A DNA stretch of 64,000 nucleotides from the IMG/VR virus record IMGVR_UViG_3300006155_000234. One strand, written 5' to 3'. The position numbers were made by a program, and so were the translations under genes. The stretch comes from a virus. Its lineage: Duplodnaviria > Heunggongvirae > Uroviricota > Caudoviricetes. Shown here in pieces: positions 2,076 through 26,560 of the stretch. Positions within the stretch are counted from its first letter, which is position 1; each line of letters opens with the position of its first letter. A model generated the notes under the pieces. The model was given only the letters and a program-made list of their open reading frames with translations, had not been told where the DNA came from and did no database searches.

Positions 2076-2102
2076 ATAGATAGAGCGTTAAACTCTATCT
2101 AT
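2076..2102 (-). terminator. Intrinsic terminator hairpin ATAGATAGAG-cgttaaa-CTCTATCTAT
   Basis: 10-bp perfect stem just after the stop of the protease gene, followed by a T-rich tract on the minus strand. Confidence 0.75.
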
Positions 2103-2115
2103 TGTAGTATTATTC

Positions 2116-2994
2116 TTAAAATCCAAATATACCTTTAAAGAAATCTGCTATTTTCTCAAATATATTCTTTTCTTCTTGAGTTTGATTTTGTTGTTCTATA
2201 ATAGGTACTTCTGTTGTTTCTTCCTTTTCATCTTCAAGTTTAGTTTCTATAATTTCTCCATTTGCAAGTGTTAAACTTTCTATACCATAACAACCATTTG
2301 CTATTTGACATTTATCTTCATAAGATAACCAAGCTGTTCCATTATTTCCCCATTGAGTACCCCAAGAATTTAATACTAACCATGCACCATCATTTTCAGG
2401 TTTTTCATAGTAGAAATTGTCTTTTGAATAATTATCATCCCAACCTATTATCACTATTGCATGTCCAATAGGTCTTTCTTCTACAAATTTATCTTTACGA
2501 TATATTCCACCTTTATATCTATCTGTTTGTCTATCACATTGAATTGAAGCAAATGTTCCTCCATAGTTCATTATATATTTTTTAACTGTTTCTACATCTT
2601 TATTTATATTCATTGCATACTCAAATTTTTCTATTACTGCTTTTTTAGTTGCTTCATCAAACTTCTTTTGATTTGTTTCATTTATTGCATATTCTTTAGT
2701 AGGAAAATCACTCTCTAATACATGCTTCCCATAAGTACCACCAAAGTCGTTCCAATGTGAAAAATATCCTATTGATAGATTATAATTTATTCCTTTTGTT
2801 TTTTGTATATATGTTTCTATCATTTTTTGCTCTGCATAAATTCCACATAATGATGTTTGCTTTTGATTTTCTACTTCAATACTTATATCATTTCTTAAAT
2901 CATATTTACTTGGTATTTCCTCATCTGTTGCATAAACACTGGTACATAATAGAATTAGAATTAAAATAATACTACTTAAAATTTTATTTTTCAT
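2116..2994 (-). CDS. Secreted papain-like (C1A) cysteine protease
   Basis: Hydrophobic signal peptide (MKNKILSSIILILILLCTSVYA), YDLR, oxyanion Gln and catalytic Cys (NQKQTSLC), GHAIVIIGWDD, NSWG. ATG at 2994 fits the RBS better than GTG at 3003. Confidence 0.85.
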   Translation of the reverse strand: MKNKILSSIILILILLCTSVYATDEEIPSKYDLRNDISIEVENQKQTSLCGIYAEQKMIETYIQKTKGINYNLSIGYFSHWNDFGGTYGKHVLESDFPTKEYAINETNQKKFDEATKKAVIEKFEYAMNINKDVETVKKYIMNYGGTFASIQCDRQTDRYKGGIYRKDKFVEERPIGHAIVIIGWDDNYSKDNFYYEKPENDGAWLVLNSWGTQWGNNGTAWLSYEDKCQIANGCYGIESLTLANGEIIETKLEDEKEETTEVPIIEQQNQTQEEKNIFEKIADFFKGIFGF

Positions 2995-3036
2995 ATAAAA
3001 CACCTCTCAACTATATTATAAACTTAAATTTTAATT

Positions 3037-3065
3037 ATTATACAATAAGTTTTGAAATATGTCAA
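3037..3065 (-). promoter_or_regulatory. SigmaA-type early promoter (TTGACA-TATTTCAAAACTTATTG-TATAAT)
   Basis: Consensus -35/-10 with 17-bp spacer; drives the protease gene. Confidence 0.85.
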
Positions 3066-3141
3066 GTATTATTTTTATAGTTTAATAATTTTGTAAAATA
3101 TTAATGACAGGAAATTTTTATTGAAAGGAGGAATTTATGTA

Positions 3142-5811
3142 ATGGCAAATAAAAATCCACAGGGACCTAAAGTTGGTTCAAACCTACCATCTATAAATAA
3201 TCTTGCTATAAGAACTGAAAAATGGTCTTGGGTAGGGGGTGTGTTAGATGGACAAGAAGCAGGTATATTCATATTCACTAAAATAGAAGCTTGGAGAGAC
3301 CATGCCTATTATGATAAACAATTACATATAAAATTTTATATGGATAGTGAATCTAAATATATGGCAACCAATAAATATACACATGATTGGGAGGCTATTA
3401 TTGGAATACAAAATAAGAAAACAAGATTTTTTTACGAATCTGGTTATGGACAAGCACCATTTCCACCTCAACCTGTAAGTGAAGGAATTATAGGGCATTT
3501 ATGGAGTGGTACTAACCCTATTGAAATTATAGTAGAAAATACAGATAGAAGAGATAGTTGGATTGAACAAGAAGAGAAAGAAAATGGTTTGATACCTGAT
3601 GCTACAATTTATACATACGAAACTGGTAGATTTTCAGAAGCCTATGTAAAGGGATATGTTCATGCTAATGATGTTGGGTCTCATACTGCATCTAAACAAA
3701 TAAAAGCAGATTTCTTTTATCCTCCGTATAGAGAAATAGTAGATAATGATAAACACCCAGACCCTCCACCTGTAGGAAGTAATACTGGAGGAAAAGATAT
3801 AGGAAAAGGAACTGAAAATGAAACTGTAACAATATCTAGTACATATTCTATATCAAGGGTAGGAGATACTCAATCTGTAAGTTGGACTCCTAACGGAACA
3901 TCTGGAAACTATGGTGAATCTATAACAAATAAAGTAATTGTTGATAGAGTAGGTAATTCTAATAGTAGTCCATATAATTTTACAACACCATCTCCTGTTG
4001 CAAGTACCTATAATGCTTATGTAGAAAGATACTATACAAATTATCCAGATATTATGACAAGAAGTAATACACTTTCATTGAAAACTTACTCTAAACCAAG
4101 TCTAACAGGTATTACACTAGGTAAATACACTTTAAGTCCAAGAGCAGGAACAACTTTAGGTATTACATTTAATGGTATAAATAATAGAACACATTCTATT
4201 GAGAACAATTTTAGAAGTGGAATTTGGAGTAATATCAAAGGGAAGTATTATATAGATGAAGTTAAGACAGGAAGTTATAGAGAATTATCATTAGATGAAA
4301 TAAAAACAATGTTTCCAGATACATCTGCTGTAAATGGTATTGTTAATGGAACAGTTTATGGAAATAGAAGAAATTTAGGTGTAAATGGTGGAAATCCAGG
4401 AAATGGTCAACTTGTATATGAAACAAATACTTATTCAAGAGGAATTACTATAAAATATACACCAACAGAAACAATAGACCCAAATAAAGAACCAAATAAT
4501 GACCCATCAAGTAGTGGTTTAAGATATAATAAAAGAGAAAATAGAACACAAGGAGCTAAATTAACTGCAGGGCATACATGGGTTTTACCTAATACCTATA
4601 ATATAAGTAGTATGGATGGTGTTGATGTAACTATTCAATATCCTAAAATAGATAGTTCTGGTGTATTAAGTGGTTATAGAATTAGATTATATTCTGCAAA
4701 TGATGGTTCGCCACATGCAAATGAAAGATATTATGAACATCATTTTGATACTACGAATTATACAGATACTTTTTTAATTCCATATAATGATATTAGAAGA
4801 GGTGTAAGTGGTAATATAATTGAGATTACACCATATTATACATCAAGTAGTGGTGCTAGATGGTATGGACCAACAATTAGTAAAAAATTTGTAGATATTG
4901 CATGGATGTTAAATGACCCAGTAATTGATTGTCCTTTAACAGGAACAACATGGCATAATCATCAATATAGAGTATTATTTAAACTGCCTATTGATAGAGA
5001 TACAAATTATAAAGGACAAAATGATATAGAATTTTATTATGGTGCTGGAACTTATAGATACCAAGAAATTCAAATAGATATAAATGGAACTGTAACTACA
5101 ATAGGGAATAATGCTTATATGAATGCTCAAAATAACTGGAATGGTCCTATTAATATTAATAATGCAAAATTAACTTATTTAAGAAAAATAATAATAAATC
5201 AATCTTTAATACCAACATATAATAATACAAATTATTATATGATTAGAATTAGAATTAGAAAGGCATATGGACAAAATCCTAATTGGGATGGCTGGAGTAA
5301 TTGGTCATCATATATAAATGTTAGTAAACAAACAGTATCTAATGAAAATGTTTTAAGACATCAAACTATAATGGCTTCTCATTACATGAATGTTCAAAAT
5401 GCTTTTAATAGAAGTACTGCTTGTTATGCTAAAACAGCATCAGATAATCAAAATTTTGTAATAAAAGAAAGTTTTGACAGAAGTAGAGGAGATAATATAA
5501 ATGGACCACATTTATCTCCACCTCAAAATACACCATTAGGAACTGTAAAAGAATATGTAAGTGAATTTAATGATTTACATCAAATGAAAAATAAAATAAA
5601 TTCTTATGGAACATTTGATACAGATAAAAACAGAAATCCTGTTAAATTAGATTATCAAAATAAACTATTAGCTACTTTTGTTCCTTCCCAAGAATTTATA
5701 ACTGCTGAAAAAGACCAAAATGGTGCAACAGAATGTGATAGTCCTACAACAATATTAAAGGGTAGAAACTACATGAAATATATGTGTGATGAATTAAATA
5801 ATTTATGGTAG
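3142..5811 (+). CDS. Large G/N/T/Y-rich beta-sheet protein, probably virion structural (tail or receptor-binding)
   Basis: ORF 3121..5811; RBS GAAAGGAGG favours ATG at 3142. Composition and a Pro linker (HPDPPP) fit a multidomain tail protein. No family recognised. Confidence 0.45.
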   Translation: MANKNPQGPKVGSNLPSINNLAIRTEKWSWVGGVLDGQEAGIFIFTKIEAWRDHAYYDKQLHIKFYMDSESKYMATNKYTHDWEAIIGIQNKKTRFFYESGYGQAPFPPQPVSEGIIGHLWSGTNPIEIIVENTDRRDSWIEQEEKENGLIPDATIYTYETGRFSEAYVKGYVHANDVGSHTASKQIKADFFYPPYREIVDNDKHPDPPPVGSNTGGKDIGKGTENETVTISSTYSISRVGDTQSVSWTPNGTSGNYGESITNKVIVDRVGNSNSSPYNFTTPSPVASTYNAYVERYYTNYPDIMTRSNTLSLKTYSKPSLTGITLGKYTLSPRAGTTLGITFNGINNRTHSIENNFRSGIWSNIKGKYYIDEVKTGSYRELSLDEIKTMFPDTSAVNGIVNGTVYGNRRNLGVNGGNPGNGQLVYETNTYSRGITIKYTPTETIDPNKEPNNDPSSSGLRYNKRENRTQGAKLTAGHTWVLPNTYNISSMDGVDVTIQYPKIDSSGVLSGYRIRLYSANDGSPHANERYYEHHFDTTNYTDTFLIPYNDIRRGVSGNIIEITPYYTSSSGARWYGPTISKKFVDIAWMLNDPVIDCPLTGTTWHNHQYRVLFKLPIDRDTNYKGQNDIEFYYGAGTYRYQEIQIDINGTVTTIGNNAYMNAQNNWNGPININNAKLTYLRKIIINQSLIPTYNNTNYYMIRIRIRKAYGQNPNWDGWSNWSSYINVSKQTVSNENVLRHQTIMASHYMNVQNAFNRSTACYAKTASDNQNFVIKESFDRSRGDNINGPHLSPPQNTPLGTVKEYVSEFNDLHQMKNKINSYGTFDTDKNRNPVKLDYQNKLLATFVPSQEFITAEKDQNGATECDSPTTILKGRNYMKYMCDELNNLW

Positions 5812-7581: not shown

Positions 7582-7749
7582 AATAAGACAGCAAAAACTA
7601 GGTAAAAAATTTGATGATAATTGGAAAGAAAACTTGGCTAATGCAAAAAAAGTAAAATACTTATGAATAATGGTATTATTGCAAAATATATAAATAGAGT
7701 AGAAGAACAAGATTACTTAAAAAAGGGATGGAAAAGAGGTAGAAAATGA
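7570..7749 (+). pseudogene. Possible frameshifted remnant of a homing-endonuclease-type DNA-binding tail
   Basis: IEDKIRQQKLGKKFDDNWKENLANAKK in one frame continues as SKILMNNGIIAKYINRVEEQDYLKKGWKRGRK if one A is added to an A7 run at 7645-7651. Confidence 0.35.
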
Positions 7750-8825
7750 TGAAACTTAATATTGAATTTGGAAGAACACTACTTATAGATGGTAGTTATG
7801 TCTTACATAGAATGTTATCACAACCAAACCAATGGGATTTACAAACAACAGCTGGTAAGAGAACTGGAGGCATATTTGGATGTTTAAAAAGTATATTTAA
7901 AGAAATGCAAAGATACAACTATTTCCCAATAGTTGTATTTGATGGTGGATTATCACCCAGAAGATTAAATGTATATTCTAATTATAAAAGAAATGAAGAA
8001 AAACAACTACTATTAGAATGTAAAGAATGTGAAAAAACAGAACAACAGATATTAGACGAAGCATTTATGAGAGAATATAGAACACAAAGAAAAGATATTA
8101 TAACAATGTTACATGGATTAGGTATTCCTTGTATTAGACTTGAAGGTTGGGAAGGTGATGACTTACTTTATATATTATCTAAAATGTCAAGAGATAGTAT
8201 TATAATATCAGATGATAAAGATTTAATTCAAGCAGTTTATGAAGATGAAAACAGAAAATGTAGAATTTGGAGAACAATGCACGAAGAAATGTGGGATATA
8301 AATACATTAAAAAGTAAAGAAATGGATGCATGGAAATACATAAACTGCAAAGCAATAATAGGTGACCCATCTGATAATATTCCATCTGCTTGTTATGGTG
8401 TAGGTGAAAAGACTGCTAGTGGGTTATTACAACTTATAGAATCTTGCAATAAATCTAATATTTCTTTTCCACACACAGAGGAAGATTTAGATTGTAAATG
8501 TAAAAACTTCAATATTCCAAAAAGAAAGGCATATATAAATTTTGATAAAGCACAATTTGTAGTGAATATGGAATTAATGAATTTAAAATTAGTTGATAAT
8601 GATATCACAGATGATTTTGTGAATAAATTATATGATGAAGTTATAATGGAATATAGTACAAATGATTTATATTTAGTAGACCAAAAAATAAAAGAATTCG
8701 AAATGTATTCTGTAAATATAAATGAAATATTAAAAAGAGTATCAAAGTTACATGATTATTTAAAAATAGAAGATGAATTAAAAGTAAAAAATAGTTCAGA
8801 AGAATCAATAAATAAATTATTTTAA
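7746..8825 (+). CDS. 5'-3' exonuclease / flap endonuclease (T4 RNase H-like)
   Basis: LLIDGS, VVFDGG, EGDDL, IISDDKDLIQ, GDPSDNIP and GVGEKTA motifs; C-terminus INKLF. Confidence 0.92.
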   Translation: MMKLNIEFGRTLLIDGSYVLHRMLSQPNQWDLQTTAGKRTGGIFGCLKSIFKEMQRYNYFPIVVFDGGLSPRRLNVYSNYKRNEEKQLLLECKECEKTEQQILDEAFMREYRTQRKDIITMLHGLGIPCIRLEGWEGDDLLYILSKMSRDSIIISDDKDLIQAVYEDENRKCRIWRTMHEEMWDINTLKSKEMDAWKYINCKAIIGDPSDNIPSACYGVGEKTASGLLQLIESCNKSNISFPHTEEDLDCKCKNFNIPKRKAYINFDKAQFVVNMELMNLKLVDNDITDDFVNKLYDEVIMEYSTNDLYLVDQKIKEFEMYSVNINEILKRVSKLHDYLKIEDELKVKNSSEESINKLF

Positions 8826-15281: not shown

Positions 15282-15597
15282 TTTTGCAAATTGGTATAAA
15301 TATATAATACCTAAAAGAATGGTAACTCACTATTATATATTTAGATGGTTATGTTTTATTTGGGTAGTAGATAGAGAAAGATACCAGAAAAATCAGGTAC
15401 AAAAGGGAATTAGAAGTTCTTTTATATATTGTCCCAAATGTAATGCTGATTTAATTGAAAATAATAGTTTTATAGAAGATACAGATTTTGTTTATTATAA
15501 GTGTACTAATTGTGGTACTAAAAGTAAATGGGATTTTGATGCCCCATGTCCAATATTAATGGATAGTGATATAAAATTAGATGGGAGAGGTAAATAA
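15256..15597 (+). CDS. Zinc-ribbon protein (CPKC...CTNC)
   Basis: ORF 15247..15597; paired CxxC motifs. Confidence 0.55.
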   Translation: METIKFGISFANWYKYIIPKRMVTHYYIFRWLCFIWVVDRERYQKNQVQKGIRSSFIYCPKCNADLIENNSFIEDTDFVYYKCTNCGTKSKWDFDAPCPILMDSDIKLDGRGK

Positions 15598-15866
15598 TGA
15601 AAATTAAAGAGAATGTAGACTTACAAAAGCTAAAAAGTTTTGGGTATAAATATGACCCATCTACTGGAGGATATTATAAAGTTTATTTTCCTAAATTTTT
15701 AAAACTTATACCAATACCATATCATAATATGGTTAGAGGATTAGCAATATATGATGATAGAAAAATTATAATTAAAAAGAAATATGGTTTTGCATGGATA
15801 CCAGCACTTAATGATTTATTTGCAATTAGAGATTTAATTCATGCAGGATTAGTTGAGGAGGTATAG
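15597..15866 (+). CDS. Hypothetical protein (MKIKENVDLQKLKSFGY...)
   Basis: ORF track; translationally coupled to the upstream gene. Confidence 0.6.
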   Translation: MKIKENVDLQKLKSFGYKYDPSTGGYYKVYFPKFLKLIPIPYHNMVRGLAIYDDRKIIIKKKYGFAWIPALNDLFAIRDLIHAGLVEEV

Positions 15867-15868
15867 TA

Positions 15869-16255
15869 ATGAGTTTAAGAATAAATATTTGCCAAGCAAA
15901 GGGATATGAGGGAGAAACAGTTGGTGACATTGAGAAGAGAAGATATCCTATATTAAAAGAATTAGAATTTATATCAGGTGGTGAAAAGAATGTAATTAAG
16001 TATTTATCAGAGAGCCAGATAGAAGAAATTATAATGATGGGTAATATTTTATTGAGTTATAATGCAAATAATAGTGATGATTATGTTAAATTTAGTGTGA
16101 ATGTGGATACTTATGATGATAATGGTGTTACTTGTTACCACTTGCTTATAACAACATCAGACTACGATGAAGAAGGAATGACATTTGGTGGTGTTGAATT
16201 TTTTTATGATATATCAAAAGATTTATATAATAAGTTTAAAAGCAGGGGGTTGTAG
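15869..16255 (+). CDS. Hypothetical protein
   Basis: ORF track; GAGGAGG RBS. Confidence 0.6.
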   Translation: MSLRINICQAKGYEGETVGDIEKRRYPILKELEFISGGEKNVIKYLSESQIEEIIMMGNILLSYNANNSDDYVKFSVNVDTYDDNGVTCYHLLITTSDYDEEGMTFGGVEFFYDISKDLYNKFKSRGL

Positions 16256-16257
16256 CA

Positions 16258-17427
16258 ATGAGATTATTTATATATTCAGATGTACATATAAGTAGAACAA
16301 GTAGTATATTACCTATTACAAGTAGTTATAGAAAATATACATATAGACAAGATATGATAGTAAAAACTGCACAATGGATGACAGATATTATTCAACAAAA
16401 TAATGTTGATATGATTATAAATTTAGGAGATACATTCGACCAAAATACAATAACAAGCTATGATATAGATACTGCAAGTGAATTTTTTAAAGTATTTCAA
16501 TATCTAAATAAACAACATATAATATTATGTGGAAATCATGAGATGCTTAATACAGATTATAATGTATTAAAATTATTAGACAATATACAAGGAATACAAG
16601 TTATTGATACACCAACAGTTATTGACAATTTATTATTCTTACCATATTGTGACTATAAAGATTTAGACTTATCAAATTATAATGGTAGTGATTATGCTTT
16701 TATGCACCACGATATATATGGTAGTAAAATTTCTGCAAATAGAATACTTGATTTTGGAATAGAGAAAGACAGTTTATCTAAATTTAAGAAAGTATTTAAT
16801 GGGCATGTTCATGCTTGTAGTAAATTTGCAAATATAGTAAATGTAGGAAGTATAACAACTCATTCTTTTGCAGATAGCACTGATTCAGTTCCTACTTGTT
16901 ATATATTTGATACAATTACACAAGAATTGAAAGAGTTTGAAAATAAAATATGCCCTTTATTTAGAAAAATAAAAATAGATACTATTGAAGAAGCTAATGA
17001 TTATATTAAAGAAGCAGAGAATAGCACCTATAATTTTATATTACAGGTTGAATGTGATTTTGAGATGAAAAATGATATAGAAGCATTATTACAAAATTGT
17101 AATAAAATACTTAATTATAAAATAGTTACAAAATCAATTAAGCAAGAAGAACAAAATCAAAATAGTAATATTACATTGGAAAGTAATTTAGATATAAAAC
17201 AATCTTTTAAAGATTTTTTAAATTCAGGTGTTGAGTTAAGATATCCTATGAATTTATATAATGTAGTTATTGGAGAAGTTAAAGGGCAAGAAGAAGTTAA
17301 TGTAAATGATATAACTAATTATGATACTGGAGAAGTTATAAATACTTGGGAAGCTAAATATGGAATTGAAAATAAAAGTCAAGAAAATATGGATAAGATT
17401 TCAAATAAATCAAGTAATTTATTTTAG
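16258..17427 (+). CDS. sbcD: SbcD/Mre11-like metallophosphoesterase nuclease
   Basis: SDVH, LGDTFD, CGNHE, FMHH and NGHVH calcineurin-like motifs; C-terminus SSNLF. Confidence 0.88.
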   Translation: MRLFIYSDVHISRTSSILPITSSYRKYTYRQDMIVKTAQWMTDIIQQNNVDMIINLGDTFDQNTITSYDIDTASEFFKVFQYLNKQHIILCGNHEMLNTDYNVLKLLDNIQGIQVIDTPTVIDNLLFLPYCDYKDLDLSNYNGSDYAFMHHDIYGSKISANRILDFGIEKDSLSKFKKVFNGHVHACSKFANIVNVGSITTHSFADSTDSVPTCYIFDTITQELKEFENKICPLFRKIKIDTIEEANDYIKEAENSTYNFILQVECDFEMKNDIEALLQNCNKILNYKIVTKSIKQEEQNQNSNITLESNLDIKQSFKDFLNSGVELRYPMNLYNVVIGEVKGQEEVNVNDITNYDTGEVINTWEAKYGIENKSQENMDKISNKSSNLF

Positions 17428-17438
17428 GGGTGTTTTGA

Positions 17439-18314
17439 ATGGGTAAACATATAAAAAAGTCTAATAAAGGTGTATATGGATTTAAGTTGTTAGATTATTT
17501 AGAATATATTGTATATTCTAATCTTAATACTAAAATATATAAGGTCGAGGAGGTTGGACTAAAGGGAGAGTTATTCGCAGATATACCAAAATTCAATGGA
17601 GAATATATGATTAGTAATAAAGGAAACATATTTAGAAAGATTTACAATAAGTCTTTTAGTAAATGGGAATATACAAAGGTATCTGTATTTATGGATAAAT
17701 TTATATCTGAAAAGGAACAGGGTAATGGAACTGTAAACAATTATTTATATGCAAATATTATTAGTGATGGTAAATCTTATAAATTATGGGTAGGAAGAAC
17801 AGTTGCAGAATTATTTGTTCCTAAACCAAAATACATTTTATTTAAAGATGGACTATTTGAATCTAAAATACCAATAGACCAAAGTAAGCTTAGAGTGTGC
17901 TATAAAAATAATACTGGAACAGATGTAAGTAGCGATAATATAAGATGGGTGTTTAGAAATGATGTGAGCTATAAAGGTGTTACTATTGGAAATAATACCT
18001 TACCTAAATATAATAATAACGGAGAGCGTTATGTTGTTTATAGAGTTAGCGATGGATTTGTTAAAAAGATATTTTCTAATATTAGAGATACTGGTGCATT
18101 CCTAGGATACCCAAATGCAAATGGTGACGTTACTATAAGATTGTGTAAAGGAAGAAGAAAAACAATTACAGATATAGAAGGTGACGTTGTATCCTGTAGA
18201 AAACTAAGTCAACTTAAAAATGATACTACAAGAGAATGTGTCAATTTGTATGAAAGTGCATTAAAGGTGCTGAATATGGAAAAAGAAAAAGAGATTTCTA
18301 ATAAATTATTTTAA
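17439..18314 (+). CDS. NUMOD4 + degenerate HNH + NUMOD1-like protein (probably nuclease-dead homing endonuclease derivative)
   Basis: DIPKFNGEYMISNKGNI (NUMOD4); VGRTVAELFV...VCYKNNTGTDVSSDNIRWV aligns to the HNH_3 pattern but with the His residues lost; KIFSNIRDTGAFLG (NUMOD1-like); ends SNKLF. Confidence 0.6.
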   Translation: MGKHIKKSNKGVYGFKLLDYLEYIVYSNLNTKIYKVEEVGLKGELFADIPKFNGEYMISNKGNIFRKIYNKSFSKWEYTKVSVFMDKFISEKEQGNGTVNNYLYANIISDGKSYKLWVGRTVAELFVPKPKYILFKDGLFESKIPIDQSKLRVCYKNNTGTDVSSDNIRWVFRNDVSYKGVTIGNNTLPKYNNNGERYVVYRVSDGFVKKIFSNIRDTGAFLGYPNANGDVTIRLCKGRRKTITDIEGDVVSCRKLSQLKNDTTRECVNLYESALKVLNMEKEKEISNKLF

Positions 18315-18327
18315 GGAGTGTATAAGT

Positions 18328-18561
18328 ATGTTTGATATGAGATGTAAAGAAGATGTAATGAGGGATATATCTATATTAAATGATATATGTTTAGAATATC
18401 AAAATTATAAAGGAATTATAGCAGCTTGTTTAAAACAATGTAATATTAAAGAGATAAAGGTTTGTAAATGTTCTAAAAATAAAAAGTTAGACAATATTCA
18501 AGAAAGATTAAATTGTAAAGAGTGTCAAGGGACAGGATATAAAATCATATTTAATAAGTAG
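18328..18561 (+). CDS. Small Cys-rich protein (CKC...CKECQGTG)
   Basis: ORF track; AAGGAG RBS. Confidence 0.6.
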   Translation: MFDMRCKEDVMRDISILNDICLEYQNYKGIIAACLKQCNIKEIKVCKCSKNKKLDNIQERLNCKECQGTGYKIIFNK

Positions 18562-18565
18562 ATTA

Positions 18566-18578
18566 AAGATGTTATAAA
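18566..18578 (+). promoter_or_regulatory. AAGATGTTATAAA phage promoter motif
   Basis: Intergenic, upstream of the methyltransferase pair. Confidence 0.7.
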
Positions 18579-18600
18579 TAGCAGAGAGGTGTAAGAGAAA

Positions 18601-21600
18601 ATGAATTTAATACAAAATATTTTTCAAAACCCTGAATTTAAAATTGAGGGAGACCAACATAAATTAAAAAAGAGAATATTAAAAGATATAATCAATATGA
18701 ATTGGTTTAACAGTTGCGATTTATTAGTTGGATATAAAGATGGTCAGAGAGAATACACAAATCCACAAAGATGGCAACTAGATGCAGCAAATAGTTTATT
18801 TGAGTTTTACTGGAACTATACAGTAGATAGATATACTAATTATCAAGATTTAGAGAATGAAATTTATAATCACATGAAAAATTCTAAATATATAGGAGTA
18901 CAAACAACAGTATTACCTAAATTTACAATTCCATTTAGAGCAGATAAGGGACAATGTATGGTAGATGAAAATGGAAATCAAACATTTAGAGATGGTACAC
19001 CTACAAGACCTTTTTACTCATTGATATATATTGCACAGAATGGATTTATTGATTTTGATAATAAAGTAAGATTGAAAGACTGGAATGAAGTTGTAAAATC
19101 AAATCCTAAATACTTGAAATATTTTGAAACTTGTATAGACCATTTTGATGATGGAGAGAATGGTGTTAAAAAAGAAATAAGAGATTTGGCTAAATCATAT
19201 AAGGATTTTAGAGAATACCTAGACCCAAATCTACCAATTTTAGAAGATAGAAAATGGTTATATGATTTTTGTGTTAATGTAGAAGTAAAATGTGACCCAT
19301 ATAAAAATTATGAAACAGAGTTATTAAGAAAAAATGGTTTTATAGTTATGGGTGGAAATGAATTTATATATTATAATGATATTGCATGTGTAAATTGTGG
19401 TAAACCTCATTTTAGAAACGGCTTATGTAAAGACTGTTGTGAAATGAATTTTAAAGATAGAATGATAGGAAATAAATTATATGGGAATATAAGTCAAAAA
19501 AGTAATTCAATTCAACAAGATGCAGTTAAATTAGCAGGGGCAGCTTCAAGTGCAAGTTCAGGAAGTTTTAGAGTTAGTGATGGTACATCAAGACAAGGAC
19601 ATTCTGTAAGCGATGAGAGTATAGATAATGTGTCTTGGAACTCTGTTGCAAGTAGAGCTAGTAGAGCAGCAGGATTAAATGTTGGTACTGCACCTTCTGG
19701 AAATAGTGGTGTGATAGGTGATGATGAGTTATCAAGTGCTGGAAATACAGCAGTAAAAAGTAATGCCAGTAAGTCTGTTGGGTATAATGTAGGAGAAGTA
19801 ACAGTAAGTAACAATACAACAGGAATATCAACAGCAGTTGCAGAAGAAAGAATGTCAGATGCAAGTCATACAGCAGTTGCAAGTAAAGTAAGTAGAATGC
19901 CAGGTCAAAATGTAAGTGTAAATATAACTGGTAAATCTCATACAGTACTTGATGATACAATATCTATTGTAAGTGGTGCTTCTGCAGCAAGTATAGCTAG
20001 TAGAGCTTCAGGAATGCAATTAGAAAATCAAAGTGTGCAAGTAGGTACACAAACAACATCAAATAGTGAAACAATGAGAGCAGATATTTTAACAGAAGCA
20101 GGACATAATGCTTCTAAATCTGCAAGTAATTCAAATACAGTTCAAGTTGGCACATCAACATCTGCACATAGCACATCAATATCAGATGATAGTGTAGGTT
20201 CTGTTGCAAATGTTAGTGTTTCAAGTGGTAGTTCACAATCAAGAGGCTTAAATATAGGTATGCAAAAATCAAGTGCAAATTCAAGTGTAATTGATGATGA
20301 AACATTGCAATTTGCAAGTCATGATAGTAGAATTGCAGCATTTACACATTCATCAGGGGCATCAAATGTAACATCAGAAGAGAGTGTTCAAAGAGCTGGT
20401 TTAGAATCAAGAACTGCTGGATTCCAAACCGCTGTTAGAGCTGTAAATGTAGGTAATAATGAGTTTGCAAACTCAAAAACAAGAGTGGGAAATTCAACTT
20501 CAGGAAATTCACATACAACAGGAGATAATACAGTATCTCAAATAGGTATGGAGGCTAGAACCAGTGCATTTCAAACAAAATTAAGTTCTGAAAATGTAAT
20601 AAATGTTGGAACAACTACATCAAGAGTTTCTAATGTAAATGTAGAAGAAACTACAGCAGAAGCAGGTATGACAAGTAGAAGTAGTATGACAACATCTGTT
20701 TCTGCAAATAGTGTAAATGTAGGTACAACTACATCTGAACAATCATTTGCAAGAAATAAAGATACAGTTGATGAGGCAGGAAAAGCAAGTAGAAGTAGCA
20801 TAACAACCTCACCATCTGCATTAAATAGTAATGATGTTAAATTTATTGGAAATATAAAAGATTTTGTTTATACATCTGAAAATACTGTTAGATACTATTC
20901 ATCTCAAGGTAAAATATTTGATATGACAATTCCAGATGGTTATAAATATCCAGATAATATATCTACAAATAGATTTTTTATGTTTGGAAGTTTTAATGGG
21001 AATTTAGAATTATTAAAACAATTTTGCCCTTCAAATGCTTTTGTATTTGACCCATTTGCAGGACACGGAGACAGAGCATTATTCTTTATGGAATATGGCT
21101 GTAAAACATATATAGGAAATGATACAAATGAACGTGAATGGAATTTCCTAAATAATAATCTAATTGAATTAATAAATAAATATAAGAGATTTAACCAAAG
21201 ATGTGAGGTTAGAATCAAAAATTCAATGATTTATGAACCAGAATTAGAGAATAAGGTTGATTTTGTTTACACATCTCCTCCATATTTTGATTTTGAAATG
21301 TATGATGGGTTTACAGAGCAAATCGCTGGTATGAAAACTTATGATGATTTCCATAGAGAATTTTCAATACCTATCTTTAAAAATGTATATAGATATATGA
21401 AAGATGGTGGTGTTGTAATATTACAAACAGAGAAAGATAAAAAACTAAAACAAAAATGGATAGATATGATGGTAAGTGTTGGATTTAAAAATATTACAGA
21501 GAATGATTTAAGTAATGAACAGAAACATGGTATTAATAAAACTATTCAAGAAATAGGAATTTTTGTTAAAGGTGACTATGGAAGAGCAGAAGCAAAACAA

Positions 21601-21621
21601 TCAAGCAACACATTATTTTAG
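18601..21621 (+). CDS. Multidomain DNA amino-methyltransferase (N4-C/N6-A), paralog 1: unknown N-domain + Zn finger + about 13 repeats + MTase
   Basis: C-terminal FDPFAGHG (motif I) and YTSPPYF (motif IV); CVNC...CKDC; residues about 301-750 are an imperfect repeat array; ends SNTLF. Confidence 0.8.
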   Translation: MNLIQNIFQNPEFKIEGDQHKLKKRILKDIINMNWFNSCDLLVGYKDGQREYTNPQRWQLDAANSLFEFYWNYTVDRYTNYQDLENEIYNHMKNSKYIGVQTTVLPKFTIPFRADKGQCMVDENGNQTFRDGTPTRPFYSLIYIAQNGFIDFDNKVRLKDWNEVVKSNPKYLKYFETCIDHFDDGENGVKKEIRDLAKSYKDFREYLDPNLPILEDRKWLYDFCVNVEVKCDPYKNYETELLRKNGFIVMGGNEFIYYNDIACVNCGKPHFRNGLCKDCCEMNFKDRMIGNKLYGNISQKSNSIQQDAVKLAGAASSASSGSFRVSDGTSRQGHSVSDESIDNVSWNSVASRASRAAGLNVGTAPSGNSGVIGDDELSSAGNTAVKSNASKSVGYNVGEVTVSNNTTGISTAVAEERMSDASHTAVASKVSRMPGQNVSVNITGKSHTVLDDTISIVSGASAASIASRASGMQLENQSVQVGTQTTSNSETMRADILTEAGHNASKSASNSNTVQVGTSTSAHSTSISDDSVGSVANVSVSSGSSQSRGLNIGMQKSSANSSVIDDETLQFASHDSRIAAFTHSSGASNVTSEESVQRAGLESRTAGFQTAVRAVNVGNNEFANSKTRVGNSTSGNSHTTGDNTVSQIGMEARTSAFQTKLSSENVINVGTTTSRVSNVNVEETTAEAGMTSRSSMTTSVSANSVNVGTTTSEQSFARNKDTVDEAGKASRSSITTSPSALNSNDVKFIGNIKDFVYTSENTVRYYSSQGKIFDMTIPDGYKYPDNISTNRFFMFGSFNGNLELLKQFCPSNAFVFDPFAGHGDRALFFMEYGCKTYIGNDTNEREWNFLNNNLIELINKYKRFNQRCEVRIKNSMIYEPELENKVDFVYTSPPYFDFEMYDGFTEQIAGMKTYDDFHREFSIPIFKNVYRYMKDGGVVILQTEKDKKLKQKWIDMMVSVGFKNITENDLSNEQKHGINKTIQEIGIFVKGDYGRAEAKQSSNTLF
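19501..20850 (+). repeat. Intragenic array of about 13 imperfect protein repeats, mostly 33-41 aa
   Basis: Recurring T-x-S..S..(V/I)x(D/E)(D/E)x(V/L)..AG..S(R)...NVG, e.g. TTTSRVSNVNVEETTAEAGMTSRSSMTTSVSANSVNVG followed by TTTSEQSFARNKDTVDEAGKASRSSITTS. Confidence 0.75.
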
Positions 21622-21635
21622 AAAGAGGTTTAATA

Positions 21636-23534
21636 ATGAATTTAGTACAGAATATTTTTCAGAATCCTGAATTTAAAATTACAGGGGATAAAAATAAGCT
21701 AAAACAGAAAATTGCTAAAGATATTATTAATATGTATTGGTGGAATGATTGTCATATCCTAATTGGGTATGACAGTTCATTTCGAGTATATTCTAACCCA
21801 GAATTATGGCAAATAGATATTGCAAATGACCTTTACGAATATTATTGGAATAAACAACAAGATAGTATTACAATAGATAAGTTGGAAGATAGTATTTATA
21901 AATATTTTAAAGGTAAGCAACAAGATTTTGATACAAATAATGGATATTTATCTGCATTTAATATGAAATACAGAATGGACACACAACAGTTTATGCATGA
22001 CGAAAATGGAAATCAAACATTTAGAGATGGTACACATAATAGAGCATTTTATTCATTAATATATTTAGGACAAAATGGATTTATTGATAGAGATGGATTT
22101 ATGAAAATCAAAGATTTTGATACAGTAATAAAAGGAACTAAATTTGAAAAGTTTTTTGAATTATCAAAACATAAAATTAAAAGTGAAAAAAGTATGGTAT
22201 CTGAGGAGATAAATGCACTAAAAAATACATATAGACAGTTTGATGAATACCTAGACCCAAATTTACCAATTTTAGAAGACAGAAAATGGTTATATGAAAT
22301 ATATTTAGATTTAAAATTAAAATGTGACCCATTTAAAAATTATGAATTAGAATTATTAAATAAGAATGGTTCGATAGTTGGTTCTGGGAATGAAGATATT
22401 TATATAGACATAGATGGTAATAAATGCGATTGTTGTGGTGTTAATAATAGGTATATAAATGGTTTGTGTAAAAATTGCCAAGATGTTAAAATATCTAAAA
22501 ATGGTAGGGTTTCAAGGGTATCTGGAACAAGTATTGCAACTAGAAGTATTGATGCAGGTGTTCAAGATGCATCTGTTATGGTAAATACTACAAGTCATAC
22601 ATATCAACCAAGAGGAATAAGAGCAGATAGGATATCAAGTACAAGTACATCATGTATATCTGATAATGATATGACAACTGCTGCTGCATTTTCAACAAAG
22701 GCTTCAGCAACATATCGTCCTAGAGGAATAAGAGTAGATGATGAAGATTGTATTGGTGGTATTAAATATTTTAAATATAATGAAGATGGAACAGTACATT
22801 ATGATTTTCCAAGTGGTAAGATACAAATGGATATGTCTGTACCAAAAGGATATACATACCCTAAACAAATTGCAATAGATAGATTTGCCATATATGGAAG
22901 TTTTAAAGGTAATCCTGAATTATTAAAAGAATTTTGCCCTAAAAGTGCATTTGTATTTGACCCTTTTGCTGGGCATGGAGATAGGGTTTTAATGTTTGCT
23001 AAATATGGTGTTAAAACATATATAGGAAATGATACAAATTCAAAAGAATGGAATTATCTTAACAGTACTTTTATGCCTATATTAAATAAATATAAAAAAT
23101 TTGGACAACATTTTGAAGTTAGAATAAAAGATTCTAAAATTTATGAACCAGAATTAGAGAATAAGGTTGATTTTGTTTACACATCTCCACCTTACTTTGA
23201 CTTTGAAATGTATGATGGTTTTGAAGAACAGATACAAGGTATGAAAGATTATGATGATTTCCATAAGTATTTTTCAACACCTATATTCACAAATGTTTAT
23301 AAGTACATGAAAGACGGAGGAATAGTAATTTTACAAACTGAAAGAATTGATAAATATAAAGAAAAATGGATAAAAATGATGGAAAATGTTGGTTTTAAGT
23401 GTTTATCTAGTAATGTACTAAATATGAAAAATGCAATGGCAAAAAGAGTAAATATGCTACAAGAAGTTGCTATTTTTGTTAAAGGTGACTATAAGATAGA
23501 TGAAGTCAAAACACAACAGAATAAATTATTTTAG
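21636..23534 (+). CDS. Multidomain DNA amino-methyltransferase, paralog 2 (short linker)
   Basis: N-domain clearly homologous to paralog 1 (MNL.QNIFQNPEFKI.GD; FRDGT; YLDPNLPILEDRKWLY); CDCC...CKNC; FDPFAGHG, YTSPPYF; ends QNKLF. Confidence 0.82.
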   Translation: MNLVQNIFQNPEFKITGDKNKLKQKIAKDIINMYWWNDCHILIGYDSSFRVYSNPELWQIDIANDLYEYYWNKQQDSITIDKLEDSIYKYFKGKQQDFDTNNGYLSAFNMKYRMDTQQFMHDENGNQTFRDGTHNRAFYSLIYLGQNGFIDRDGFMKIKDFDTVIKGTKFEKFFELSKHKIKSEKSMVSEEINALKNTYRQFDEYLDPNLPILEDRKWLYEIYLDLKLKCDPFKNYELELLNKNGSIVGSGNEDIYIDIDGNKCDCCGVNNRYINGLCKNCQDVKISKNGRVSRVSGTSIATRSIDAGVQDASVMVNTTSHTYQPRGIRADRISSTSTSCISDNDMTTAAAFSTKASATYRPRGIRVDDEDCIGGIKYFKYNEDGTVHYDFPSGKIQMDMSVPKGYTYPKQIAIDRFAIYGSFKGNPELLKEFCPKSAFVFDPFAGHGDRVLMFAKYGVKTYIGNDTNSKEWNYLNSTFMPILNKYKKFGQHFEVRIKDSKIYEPELENKVDFVYTSPPYFDFEMYDGFEEQIQGMKDYDDFHKYFSTPIFTNVYKYMKDGGIVILQTERIDKYKEKWIKMMENVGFKCLSSNVLNMKNAMAKRVNMLQEVAIFVKGDYKIDEVKTQQNKLF

Positions 23535-23553
23535 TAATGAGGTAGGTTTTCAA

Positions 23554-25551
23554 ATGAATATTGTATTTAAAAAAATTCATATAAAGAATTTTCAATCAGT
23601 AGAGAATATAGAACTTGAACTTGACAGTAAAGGAATAGTTGTAGTTAAAGGAATAAATAACTATGAGGCTAATGTTAAAAGCAATGGTAGTGGAAAATCA
23701 AGTATTTTTGAATCTATTATATTTTCTTTATATGGAGAAACAAGTTTAGGGATAAAAGACCCAGAGAATAGGATATTAAATCAAGGATATAGAGTTAGTT
23801 TAGATTTAAGTATAAATGGAATTAATTACACAATTATTAGATATAAAGAAAATGGAAAATCTAATATACAATTATTAGAAAATGGTATAGATGTATCTGG
23901 GAGAAATAAAACAGATACAGATAAGTTAATACAAAAATATTTAGGAATAAATAAAGACTTATTCCTTGATAGTATATTTTTAGCACAGGGGGTAAGTACA
24001 AATTTAAGTTCTTTATCACCAACTGCTAGAAAAGAAAGATTAGAAATATTAACAGGAACTGAAAAACTAATTGAAGATTTTAAACTATATATAAAGAACA
24101 AACAAATAGAGTATGAAGCTGAGTGTACTAGATTGACTTTAGACAAAACAAAATTAGAAGGTAATATACAATCATTACAAAGTCAAATAAATACCTTAAA
24201 TTCTAAAATAAATGATATTAAGATAGAGAATGAAAAAAAGAAGTCTTTGGGAAATGTAGAAGAAATAGATATTGAAATAAATCAAATACATAAAGATATT
24301 AATATATTGAATAATGATATTGTAGATATTGAAAATATAGTTATACCTGAATTTGATTCTGTAATTAGTAATAAACAATTAGATATGAATAATCTTAAAT
24401 CTAATAGAGTAGAAATAGAGAATAAGAGAGAAGAAATAAACAATATACTAAATACACAAAGAGATTTAGTTAATAAATTAAGTTCTGAGGTAGATAAGTG
24501 GGAATTTGAAATATCTAATTTTGAAAGTTCTATTAATAGATTAAATAGTGAGATAGATAGTATTAGGAAGTCAGACACATGCCCTACTTGTGGTAGAAAA
24601 TATGATAATGCTAATGAGGAACATATTTTAAATTTAATAAAAGAGAAAGAAACAGAAATATTAGATATACAAAATAAGATACAAGATAATAAAAATTTAA
24701 TAAATAATAAGAGTATTGAAATAAATACAGAAACAGAAAAAGGAAAACAGATAAGAGAACAATATGATTTAGAGCAAAATAGGATACAGAATATAGATAA
24801 TCAAATACAAGATATTGAAAAATATATACAAGATAATCAAAATAAGATAAGAGAACAGAGAGAGCTTATATCATCTAAGCAAAATCAAATAAGAGAATTA
24901 CAAAATAAAAAGGATATGCTACAAGGTAAAAAAGAGGAATTATTAAAAGTTGAAATTCAAAGTACAGCAGAATATGAAGAAATGATAGATGAAGCAAATA
25001 GTAATATAAATAGTAGCAACATTCAAATAAGGGAAATTGAATCAAAATGGAATGAGCAAAATGATTTAGTAGATGTATGTAAATATTCGCAACAACTAAT
25101 AACAAAACCATTTAGAACTTATTTATTACAAAATAGTATAAAAATATTAAATGATAAGTTAGAATATTTAAGTAATAGATTATTTAGTAACCATAAAGAT
25201 GTTATAATTATTGATGGTGACGATTCTAAGTTAGATATAAGATTAGGTGATGCTTCTTATGAGAGTTTAAGTGGTGGTGAGAAAACAAGAGTAAATATTT
25301 GTTTGTTATTAGCACAGAAATATTTAGCATCAAATCTTGGAAATGTTGACTGTAATTTAATAGTTTTGGATGAGGTTTTAGGACAATGTGATAGTGACGC
25401 TGAAATGAATATTATAGATTTGATAATAGAAGAATTACAAAGTGTTTCTAGTATAATATTTATTGGACATAAAGAACTTACAATACCTAATGATGGAACA
25501 ATTACAGTTATAAAAGATGAGAATGGACTATCAAGATTATTAAATAAATAG
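23554..25551 (+). CDS. sbcC: SbcC/Rad50-like SMC ATPase
   Basis: IKNFQS, SNGSGKSS, long coiled coil with CPTC zinc hook, LSGGEK, LDE. ATG at 23554 (GAGGTAGG RBS) within ORF 23500. Confidence 0.92.
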   Translation: MNIVFKKIHIKNFQSVENIELELDSKGIVVVKGINNYEANVKSNGSGKSSIFESIIFSLYGETSLGIKDPENRILNQGYRVSLDLSINGINYTIIRYKENGKSNIQLLENGIDVSGRNKTDTDKLIQKYLGINKDLFLDSIFLAQGVSTNLSSLSPTARKERLEILTGTEKLIEDFKLYIKNKQIEYEAECTRLTLDKTKLEGNIQSLQSQINTLNSKINDIKIENEKKKSLGNVEEIDIEINQIHKDINILNNDIVDIENIVIPEFDSVISNKQLDMNNLKSNRVEIENKREEINNILNTQRDLVNKLSSEVDKWEFEISNFESSINRLNSEIDSIRKSDTCPTCGRKYDNANEEHILNLIKEKETEILDIQNKIQDNKNLINNKSIEINTETEKGKQIREQYDLEQNRIQNIDNQIQDIEKYIQDNQNKIREQRELISSKQNQIRELQNKKDMLQGKKEELLKVEIQSTAEYEEMIDEANSNINSSNIQIREIESKWNEQNDLVDVCKYSQQLITKPFRTYLLQNSIKILNDKLEYLSNRLFSNHKDVIIIDGDDSKLDIRLGDASYESLSGGEKTRVNICLLLAQKYLASNLGNVDCNLIVLDEVLGQCDSDAEMNIIDLIIEELQSVSSIIFIGHKELTIPNDGTITVIKDENGLSRLLNK

Positions 25552-25562
25552 GAGGTTTTTCA

Positions 25563-26033
25563 ATGATTAAATTTGAATATGTAAATAGGCTAAAAGAAAT
25601 CGGTGTAGACCCAAGTGCAGATGGTTCTGAAATGAGATTACCATATAGAAGCACAAAGAAGTCAGCAGGGTATGACTTTATAAATCCAGAAACAGTTACA
25701 ATTCAACCGAAGGAAATTAAGTATGTAAAGACAGGAATTAAAGCATTATTTCCAGATGATTTTGTATTAAAATTATACAACAGAAGCTCAAATCCAAAGA
25801 AATTAGGATTAGTATTAGCAAATGGTGTTGGAATTGTAGATGCAGACTATTATAATAACCCTGATAATGAAGGAGAAATTGCATTTGCATTTGTGAATAT
25901 TAAAGATGAGCCAGTTACATTAGAATATGGTTGTAAATTAGGACAAGGAATATTTGAAAAATATTATATTGTTAATGAAGAAGATACTATTACAGCAGAA
26001 AGAACTTCTGGGTTTGGTTCAACAGGAGAATAA
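25563..26033 (+). CDS. dut: Trimeric dUTPase
   Basis: SAGYDF, RSS, GIVDADY, GQGIF and RTSGFGSTG motifs. Confidence 0.93.
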   Translation: MIKFEYVNRLKEIGVDPSADGSEMRLPYRSTKKSAGYDFINPETVTIQPKEIKYVKTGIKALFPDDFVLKLYNRSSNPKKLGLVLANGVGIVDADYYNNPDNEGEIAFAFVNIKDEPVTLEYGCKLGQGIFEKYYIVNEEDTITAERTSGFGSTGE

Positions 26034-26034
26034 T

Positions 26035-26226
26035 ATGATATATGAAGTTAGAACGACAGACTTTAAAGGAAAATGTGGTAATTGTTTCTATTTTGAAACA
26101 TCGAATGGAATTGATGGAAATTGTACTAGTTTAGAAACACAAATCAGACCATGGAACAGGTTTAGAAGTTATAATAGTAAAGCATGTGTTCATAAGGAGG
26201 TAAGTAGTGAGAAGACAAGACCTTGA
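26035..26226 (+). CDS. Small Cys-rich protein (CGNC...C...C)
   Basis: Internal ATG of ORF 25954..26226, coupled to the dut stop. Confidence 0.55.
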   Translation: MIYEVRTTDFKGKCGNCFYFETSNGIDGNCTSLETQIRPWNRFRSYNSKACVHKEVSSEKTRP

Positions 26227-26560
26227 AAAGGGAATAGAGGATTTAAAAGAAATTAGAAATATAGCCTCAAAACAAGATTATAATACATCTGTTGCAATAA
26301 ATCAAAAGTTAATTAAAATAATACCACTATTAGAAAGTGAATATAATAGAATGGTTAAAGATAATATAGATTTAGACAGTCCAATGTACAGAGAAATAAC
26401 AATGTGTGATTGTGAAGAAGTACATAAAACAATGGAAGAATTTTTAAATAATTATATGGCAGAGTTAGTTGATAATGACTTCTTTATTGTAGATTATGGA
26501 ATAATCTATATAGATAAACAAAATAAGTATGGATATGTTAAGTATAGTAGAAATAAGTAA
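26207..26560 (+). CDS. Hypothetical protein
   Basis: ORF track; AAGGAGG RBS with GTG start. Confidence 0.6.
   Translation: MRRQDLEKGIEDLKEIRNIASKQDYNTSVAINQKLIKIIPLLESEYNRMVKDNIDLDSPMYREITMCDCEEVHKTMEEFLNNYMAELVDNDFFIVDYGIIYIDKQNKYGYVKYSRNK

Follow-up and report, generated by a model that had tools for sequence, protein, structure and literature searches.

The 64,000 nt stretch of DNA analysed here (the window; IMG/VR record IMGVR_UViG_3300006155_000234, Caudoviricetes) is part of a ~220 kb, 26 % G+C contig of an uncultured jumbo phage, which was binned with a Clostridium-like metagenome-assembled genome from the mouse gut. It carries two tandem paralogous genes, P0001 and P0002, whose products are most likely DNA amino-methyltransferases (amino-MTases) acting on N4 of cytosine or N6 of adenine. 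Their open reading frames (ORFs) are separated by 14 nt and comprise the following parts.

18601..21621, + strand: long paralogue P0001, 1006 aa (ORF and translation; intact orthologues 893–1048 aa)
18601..19374, + strand: P0001 orphan N-terminal domain (N-domain), aa 1–258 (52 % identical to the short paralogue; family profile)
19387..19440, + strand: P0001 four-Cys putative Zn ribbon (C263, C266, C276, C279)
19441..19629, + strand: P0001 Ser/Ala-rich lead-in with relics of x-A-S triplets
19630..20868, + strand: P0001 11 degenerate repeat units of 28–49 aa each, aa 344–756 (self-similarity, unit alignment)
20869..21579, + strand: P0001 predicted permuted β-type amino-MTase core (motif I FDPFAGHG, 21046–21069; motif IV TSPPYF, 21271–21288)
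21580..21618, + strand: P0001 C-terminal tail ending N-T-L-F
21636..23534, + strand: short paralogue P0002, 632 aa (ORF and translation; orthologues 631–682 aa)
21636..22409, + strand: P0002 orphan N-domain, aa 1–258 (AF2 model)
22425..22478, + strand: P0002 four-Cys putative Zn ribbon (C264, C267, C278, C281)
22500..22775, + strand: P0002 linker, two units with TY(Q/R)PRGIR(A/V)D, aa 289–380
22776..23492, + strand: P0002 predicted permuted β-type amino-MTase core (motif I, 22956–22979; motif IV, 23181–23198)
23493..23531, + strand: P0002 C-terminal tail ending N-K-L-F

A preliminary description, made from the DNA letters alone, had called these genes tandem paralogues that differ by a long and a short linker, and both ORFs stood as it gave them. 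In BLASTP alignments the two proteins were 52 % identical over residues 1–281 and 53 % identical over the last ~340 residues, with a middle that could not be aligned. The main difference between them is the linker, of ~470 aa in P0001 and ~95 aa in P0002.

Methyltransferase core and family

In both paralogues FDPFAGHG (motif I) lies 75 aa upstream of TSPPYF (motif IV), and the C-terminal amino-MTase that had been read from these two motifs was borne out by matches to PF01555 (N6_N4_Mtase) of 34.3 and 30.9 bits, above the gathering cut-off of 26.7. S-P-P-Y was invariant across 42 family members, as were G65 and G67 of motif I. N4-cytosine enzymes have Ser in motif IV more often, which is insufficient to decide the base. 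When the family profile of the core was compared with PDB sequences, the only significant matches were β-class DNA amino-MTases, namely 2ZIE (6e-9) followed by M.MboIIA, N4CMT 8S9N, DpnA and CcrM. In every case the halves with motif I and motif IV aligned to these enzymes in swapped order, with motif I of the core falling on motif I of 2ZIE, M.MboIIA, N4CMT and DpnA, and the linear order of the β class (motifs IV–VIII, target-recognition domain, motifs X and I–III) was found in neither paralogue. Because the halves match in swapped order, the core is, on these alignments, a circular permutant of the β class with motifs X and I–III before motifs IV–VIII and no room for an internal recognition domain. 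The MTase fold tolerates permutation, and β enzymes are probably dimeric in action (PMC7544214).

The window proteins resemble β-class DNA MTases (PF01555; TTHA0409/2ZIE, M.MboIIA, M.PvuII, CcrM and the rotifer N4CMT) in that motif I (F-x-G-x-G) and motif IV ((D/S)PPY) are homologous in both halves, and β-class enzymes are often orphans in phages, as here. They differ in having motif I before motif IV, in lacking a recognition domain between motifs VIII and X, and in carrying an additional repeat loop and an additional, unrelated N-terminal domain. Among annotated proteins the nearest is the MTase of Twort-like Staphylococcus/Mammaliicoccus phages (Alsa_4 WNM51395.1, 328 aa; phrog_12517), which has the same permuted core with 38 % identity over ~170 aa and matches PF01555 as profile positions 84–219 followed by 1–84 (E 5.8e-17). 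In Alsa_4 its gene adjoins SbcD-like and exonuclease (SbcC-type) genes (2096–5504 for the group), echoing the position of the window pair beside Mre11- and Rad50-like genes. The Twort-like enzyme has, however, no Zn ribbon, repeat linker or N-x-L-F tail, nor does it have the orphan N-domain, for which hhalign against this MTase gave a probability of 0.3 %.

Profile searches with the N-domain covered 1.84 billion representatives. The first search recovered only 12 clusters and the second ~70 clusters at 90 % identity, all of them on metagenomic phage contigs of differing types (T4-like of 108 kb, RecT-type and a 38 kb PolA phage). The architecture was uniform throughout, with an N-domain of ~255 aa followed by a repeat tract and then by an MTase core of ~240 aa, and linker length ranged from ~30 to ~517 aa. 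When 50,697 phage records were searched by tblastn with both clades, only the core was recovered, and no cultured phage among them had the N-domain or the tract; a literature search returned no description of an architecture combining N-domain, repeat linker and permuted core. Judged by these searches, the proteins belong to an undescribed, phage-only DNA MTase family that is not named in any database, in agreement with the earlier statement that neither the N-domain nor the architecture was recognizable.

Gene neighbourhoods were not conserved among family members. In the 38 kb PolA-type phage (L007, 7833–13923) the family member stands amid nucleotide-sugar genes (epimerase/dehydratase, oxidoreductase, cytidylyltransferase, aminotransferase and acetyltransferase); on the T4-like contig a ParB_N-like gene lies directly upstream (L004, 9311–9994), and in another phage a faint Acb2/Tad1-like gene adjoins it (L005, 9474–9878). 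One distant homologue, P0029 (870 aa), has a ~340-aa insertion with a weak LAGLIDADG_3 match that splits motif I (FDPF / C...N / CGHG) and looks like an intein in the S-adenosylmethionine (SAM)-binding loop.

Orphan N-domain and its predicted docking

Exactly two copies of the N-domain, those of P0001 and P0002, are present in the phage genome. Structure prediction, which the preliminary description had proposed as a check, gave a confident fold: AF2 modelling of the P0002 N-domain with 60 diverse sequences reached a predicted local distance difference test score (pLDDT) of 90.9 and a predicted template modelling (TM) score of 0.86, whereas 15 close sequences had given an unusable model (pLDDT 50). 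No credible relative of this fold was found by Foldseek against the PDB (best E 1.5), by VIA-align over 48,161 chains (best Z 3.2), or among AFDB clusters (best E 0.38), BFVD (best E 1.2) and the ESM Atlas (TM at most 0.29). The N-domain had no Pfam match, its profile had zero matches among PDB sequences at E up to 10, and language-model look-alikes were only unnamed viral clusters, at 0.79. Within the family ~44 N-domain positions, mostly polar or aromatic, are invariant or nearly so at an overall identity of ~28 %.

Prediction of the complex of N-domain and core gave an interaction prediction score from aligned errors (ipSAE) of 0.62, compared with 0.11 for the best control. Among solved complexes 58 of 80 attain the ipSAE mark, as do 2 of 110 mismatched pairs, counts that are only rough because our own alignments were used. 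Contacts agreed in at least 86 % across the docking runs, and partner pLDDT was at least 71. The predicted interface in P0002 comprises residues 52–138 and 175–176 of the N-domain and residues 386–427, 447–457 and 468–486 of the core, beside the motif I loop. In the model, which supports such an arrangement, N-domain and core would form a compact two-domain enzyme, and their direct docking would leave the linker looped out rather than let it set a distance. With the module order TRD-like, I, IV (TRD, target-recognition domain), we infer that the N-domain stands in for the missing recognition domain.

The linker in the window and in distant members

The four Cys preceding the linker, already noted in both proteins as a putative Zn site, were invariant in 15 of 15 clade members and are missing in distant family members. 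The ~450 aa that follow in P0001 had been described as ~13 imperfect repeats. The repetition is real, as the mean segment self-score of the long linker was 34.6 (23.8±0.6 when shuffled) and its maximum self-score was 89 (42±4), a value reached by none of 100 shuffles; the number of alignable units is 11, not 13. The units average ~38 aa and follow a pattern of small residues, G-x-N-V, V-G-T-x-x-S and an acidic pair at the end. The doubled TY(Q/R)PRGIR(A/V)D reported for the short linker corresponds to two units that match the same pattern, and orthologues of P0002 have two or three.

Tandem Repeats Finder detected no long DNA-level array in the window linker, the repeats being visible at the protein level only, and Ser and Ala codons are mixed across it; the array is thus old. 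In orthologues, located on contigs of 211–225 kb, the linkers are 362–517 aa (long form) and 98–149 aa (short form) and differ by whole units. Linker identity was 62–79 % for the long form and 74–92 % for the short form, compared with 77–96 % for the flanking domains. This comparison of repeats among homologues had been suggested at the outset, together with the remark that a linker predicted to be plain disorder and not conserved in homologues would speak against the reading proposed for the array; the units proved to be conserved and under purifying selection. Across contigs from four independent mouse-gut studies the long array showed zero indels, and substitutions comprised nine synonymous and five conservative nonsynonymous changes in the P0001 linker, as against 12 synonymous and one nonsynonymous in the two P0001 domains. 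From the absence of indels and the synonymous excess it follows that the window array is real and stable in length over short periods, and that purifying selection acts on it, though less strongly than on the domains. The long linker has a net charge of −8 (slightly acidic), and a language-model look-alike search with the repeat region gave no match.

In a related phage (L001, 7147–9985) a single-base insertion (+1 frameshift) within the array splits the long paralogue into ORFs of 402 and 513 aa. Further truncated forms of the long paralogue (P0021–P0025) were present on other contigs, where the short paralogue is intact.

In distant family members the linker is a tract (x-Ala-Ser)n of ~10–60 triplets with conserved borders. 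The underlying DNA is a 9-nt unit, NNY GCN AGY, with an entropy of 1.5–1.9 bits at positions 1–2 and ~0–0.6 bits at the other seven. One distant gene has 31 units with zero wobble variation, and two blocks with different coding, GCG AGT and GCT TCG, were found within one gene. As the two blocks are coded differently, Ala-Ser is selected at the protein level and each block is homogenized at the DNA level. The residues at x are mainly Arg, Asn, Ala, Asp, Ser and His, and the tract is net basic.

Comparison of tracts between strains, which rests on short-read assemblies, revealed extensive reshuffling. In three strains whose MTase-coding DNA had 0–1 differences per 681 nt, the tracts were different mosaics of a common alphabet of 9-nt units, in which unit-specific linked variants and multi-unit cassettes recurred at different positions; in five such strains, tract lengths were 30, 87, 87, 90 and 153 aa. 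Because near-identical strains carry reshuffled whole-unit mosaics, the tract is, on this sequence evidence, an in-frame minisatellite evolving by unequal recombination or slippage. Targeted hypermutation at variable positions 1–2 of the unit, of the kind produced by diversity-generating retroelements, was considered and rejected: the strains differ by whole-unit and cassette shuffling, and variation was not adenine-specific, since the A residues within the fixed 7 nt were invariant. In L013 and L016 (one 41 kb contig) the family gene is cut by contig ends that fall within the 9-nt tract, which indicates that assemblers break at this repeat.

Tandem repeats in modification genes with a copy number that varies between strains, as here, are also a feature of EcoR124I HsdS and of phase-variable Type III mod genes. 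In HsdS, however, the repeats build a rigid helical spacer that separates two recognition domains, so that copy number sets target spacing, whereas each of the present proteins has one N-domain joined to a catalytic core by a tract of 30–517 aa that varies between identical cores. The Type III mod repeats are not multiples of 3 and act as an on/off switch; in contrast, the unit of the distant members is 9 nt, in frame and part of a low-complexity tract. The window array has no DNA-level repeat, and the frameshift in L001 is a single-base insertion rather than a change of unit number.

Common tail, proposed explanation and genome surroundings

The C-terminal N-(T/K)-L-F was invariant in all orthologues of the two MTases while the preceding residues drifted, and distant family members do not have this tail. 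Endings in L-F were found in 6 of the 77 plus-strand ORFs of the window, compared with 0.26 expected. All six are on the + strand.

7746–8825: flap endonuclease (FEN)-like exonuclease
16258–17427: Mre11
17439–18314: HNH endonuclease
18601–21621: MTase P0001
21636–23534: MTase P0002
29802–30224: 140-aa ORF

The related phages L001 and L002 retain these endings, and an unrelated HNH_3 endonuclease there bears one too; the tail may be a docking peptide for a common hub.

The explanation that we favour, and consider somewhat more probable than its opposite, is that P0001 and P0002 belong to a new phage-only family of permuted DNA amino-MTases, both being orphan enzymes that have a recognition-type domain of orphan fold and an extruded loop, which has been fixed and expanded in one paralogue. 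The N-domain would pack on the N-terminal segment of the core and on the helices beside the motif I loop, leaving the linker extruded. The loop would have originated as the in-frame minisatellite, (NNY GCN AGY)n encoding (x-Ala-Ser)n, and in other phages this repeat is still freely reshuffled. In the jumbo-phage lineage the gene would have been duplicated and the loop would have decayed to higher-order units of ~38 aa, 11 of them in one copy, to become stable and weakly constrained. Both copies would also have acquired the Zn ribbon and the N-x-L-F peptide that is common to the Mre11, FEN and HNH genes and that probably docks the MTases to a common replication/repair hub. New phage DNA could thereby be methylated at two different targets, with the phage SAM synthetase as a cofactor source, and so escape host restriction. 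The repeat linker itself looks like a tolerated or accessory loop and not a ruler that measures DNA.

Several observations weigh against parts of this explanation. The PF01555 scores are modest, and the matches cover only profile positions 1–97 and 1–121 of 221, the motif IV half. The order N-domain, motif I, motif IV is also that of HemK. Only ~6 of the 44 conserved N-domain positions lie at the predicted interface, which is no enrichment, and the calibration of the docking mark is the rough one given above. By a charge–hydropathy index, the linker could not be told apart from the folded domains. As regards the hub, the phage polymerase is of family A and without the tail, and the only match of the candidate clamp is to phrog_947.

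Because so few of the conserved positions fall in the interface, the N-domain probably has a further functional site. It could be a second enzyme or a reader of modified bases instead of a recognition domain, so that the protein would carry out a two-step modification or methylate a non-canonical base. The near-invariant polar and aromatic positions outside the interface fit such a role, as do the phage's own SAM synthetase gene with a pyridoxal phosphate (PLP)-dependent enzyme gene after it and the homologue inside a nucleotide-sugar gene set. We nevertheless regard it as unlikely: the N-domain has no similarity to known enzyme folds, family gene neighbourhoods are not conserved, and no other hypermodification genes were identified beside the two MTase genes.

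A substrate other than DNA would accord with the module order: the enzymes might methylate a protein, at a HemK-like glutamine, or an amino group of RNA, and the target might belong to a replication or repair partner. HemK is a protein MTase. The zeta arrangement of N-domain, motif I and (S)PPY was once proposed for HemK (PMC7544214), and this zeta/gamma-type order (as proposed for HemK/PrmC) is the linear order of the window proteins; the core also has weak matches to RsmD-like and RNA MTase models. The window N-domain has, however, neither sequence nor fold similarity to that of HemK, the significant relatives of both core halves are β-class DNA MTases, the Twort-like homologue matches PF01555 strongly, and the phage context fits anti-restriction, which makes a non-DNA substrate rather improbable.

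The frameshift in the L001 array and the truncated forms P0021–P0025, found with an intact short paralogue, raise the question of whether the long paralogue is a redundant duplicate heading for loss, its expanded array being a neutral by-product of repeat instability; the unit-sized indels between orthologues point the same way. We give this little credence for the window lineage, in which the gene is intact and length-stable in the four studies, with ratios of synonymous to nonsynonymous changes of 12 : 1 in the domains and 9 : 5 in the linker, and with invariant catalytic motifs and tail. A split form could, moreover, still assemble if the domains dock.

A more speculative reading, to which we assign a small chance, is that docked N-domain and core, closed by the flexible loop, form a protein ring around DNA, which would act as a sliding tether for processive methylation, coupled in this phage by the tail to replication or recombination. 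The shortest tract (~30 aa, ~10 nm when extended) would just enclose duplex DNA, the residues at x in the tract are mostly basic, and lengths above the minimum would be free to vary, as is seen.

The suggestion of the preliminary description that the array is a DNA-reading module or molecular ruler, the paralogues methylating differently spaced targets, drew on array length being their main difference and could appeal to the conserved units under purifying selection and to x-Ala-Ser being selected in distant members, but it is very improbable, because strains whose catalytic parts are identical differ five-fold in the length of the tract, which spans 30–517 aa family-wide, the predicted docking of the N-domain on the core does not depend on the linker, the long linker carries a net acidic charge and has units too degenerate for a base-reading code, and several lineages have the long paralogue split within the array.

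If the favoured explanation holds, what is new here is the combination of a circularly permuted β-class core, a folded domain without structural relative and an in-frame minisatellite coding an inter-domain loop. Should the N-domain be a recognition module, it would be a new DNA-recognition fold, of use for engineering. The reshuffling tract is a clear example from nature of the origin, turnover and later fixation of low-complexity linkers, and the common tail points to an undescribed docking code linking methylation, Mre11/Rad50, FEN and homing endonucleases.

The pair is flanked by Mre11/SbcD-like and Rad50/SbcC-like genes and lies downstream of a homing endonuclease gene and a small Cys-rich ORF. 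Further features of the window are as follows.

16258..17427, + strand: Mre11/SbcD-like phosphoesterase, ending S-N-L-F (Pfam Metallophos)
17439..18314, + strand: NUMOD4-type homing endonuclease, ending N-K-L-F (position varies between relatives)
18328–18561: 77-aa Cys-rich ORF with a C-x-x-C-x-G-x-G motif, just upstream of P0001
23500..25551, + strand: Rad50/SbcC-like ATPase, its start overlapping the end of P0002
50717–52710: SAM synthetase (MetK; three S-AdoMet_synt domains), with a PLP-dependent (PALP) enzyme gene directly after it

This gene order was conserved in relatives, in which the homing endonuclease is different or missing; the relative L002 has an 82-aa ORF at the position equivalent to that of the 77-aa Cys-rich ORF. 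A promoter and terminator scan of 15500–26500 gave counts no different from shuffle level. Contigs of RNA library X6 cover both MTase genes, which is no proof of transcription. Further PF01555 matches in the assembly G000 comprised a 408-aa ORF at a distant position on the same contig (C3:211687–212046) and, on a bacterial contig, a canonical β-class MTase of 273 aa (C1:406236–406886).

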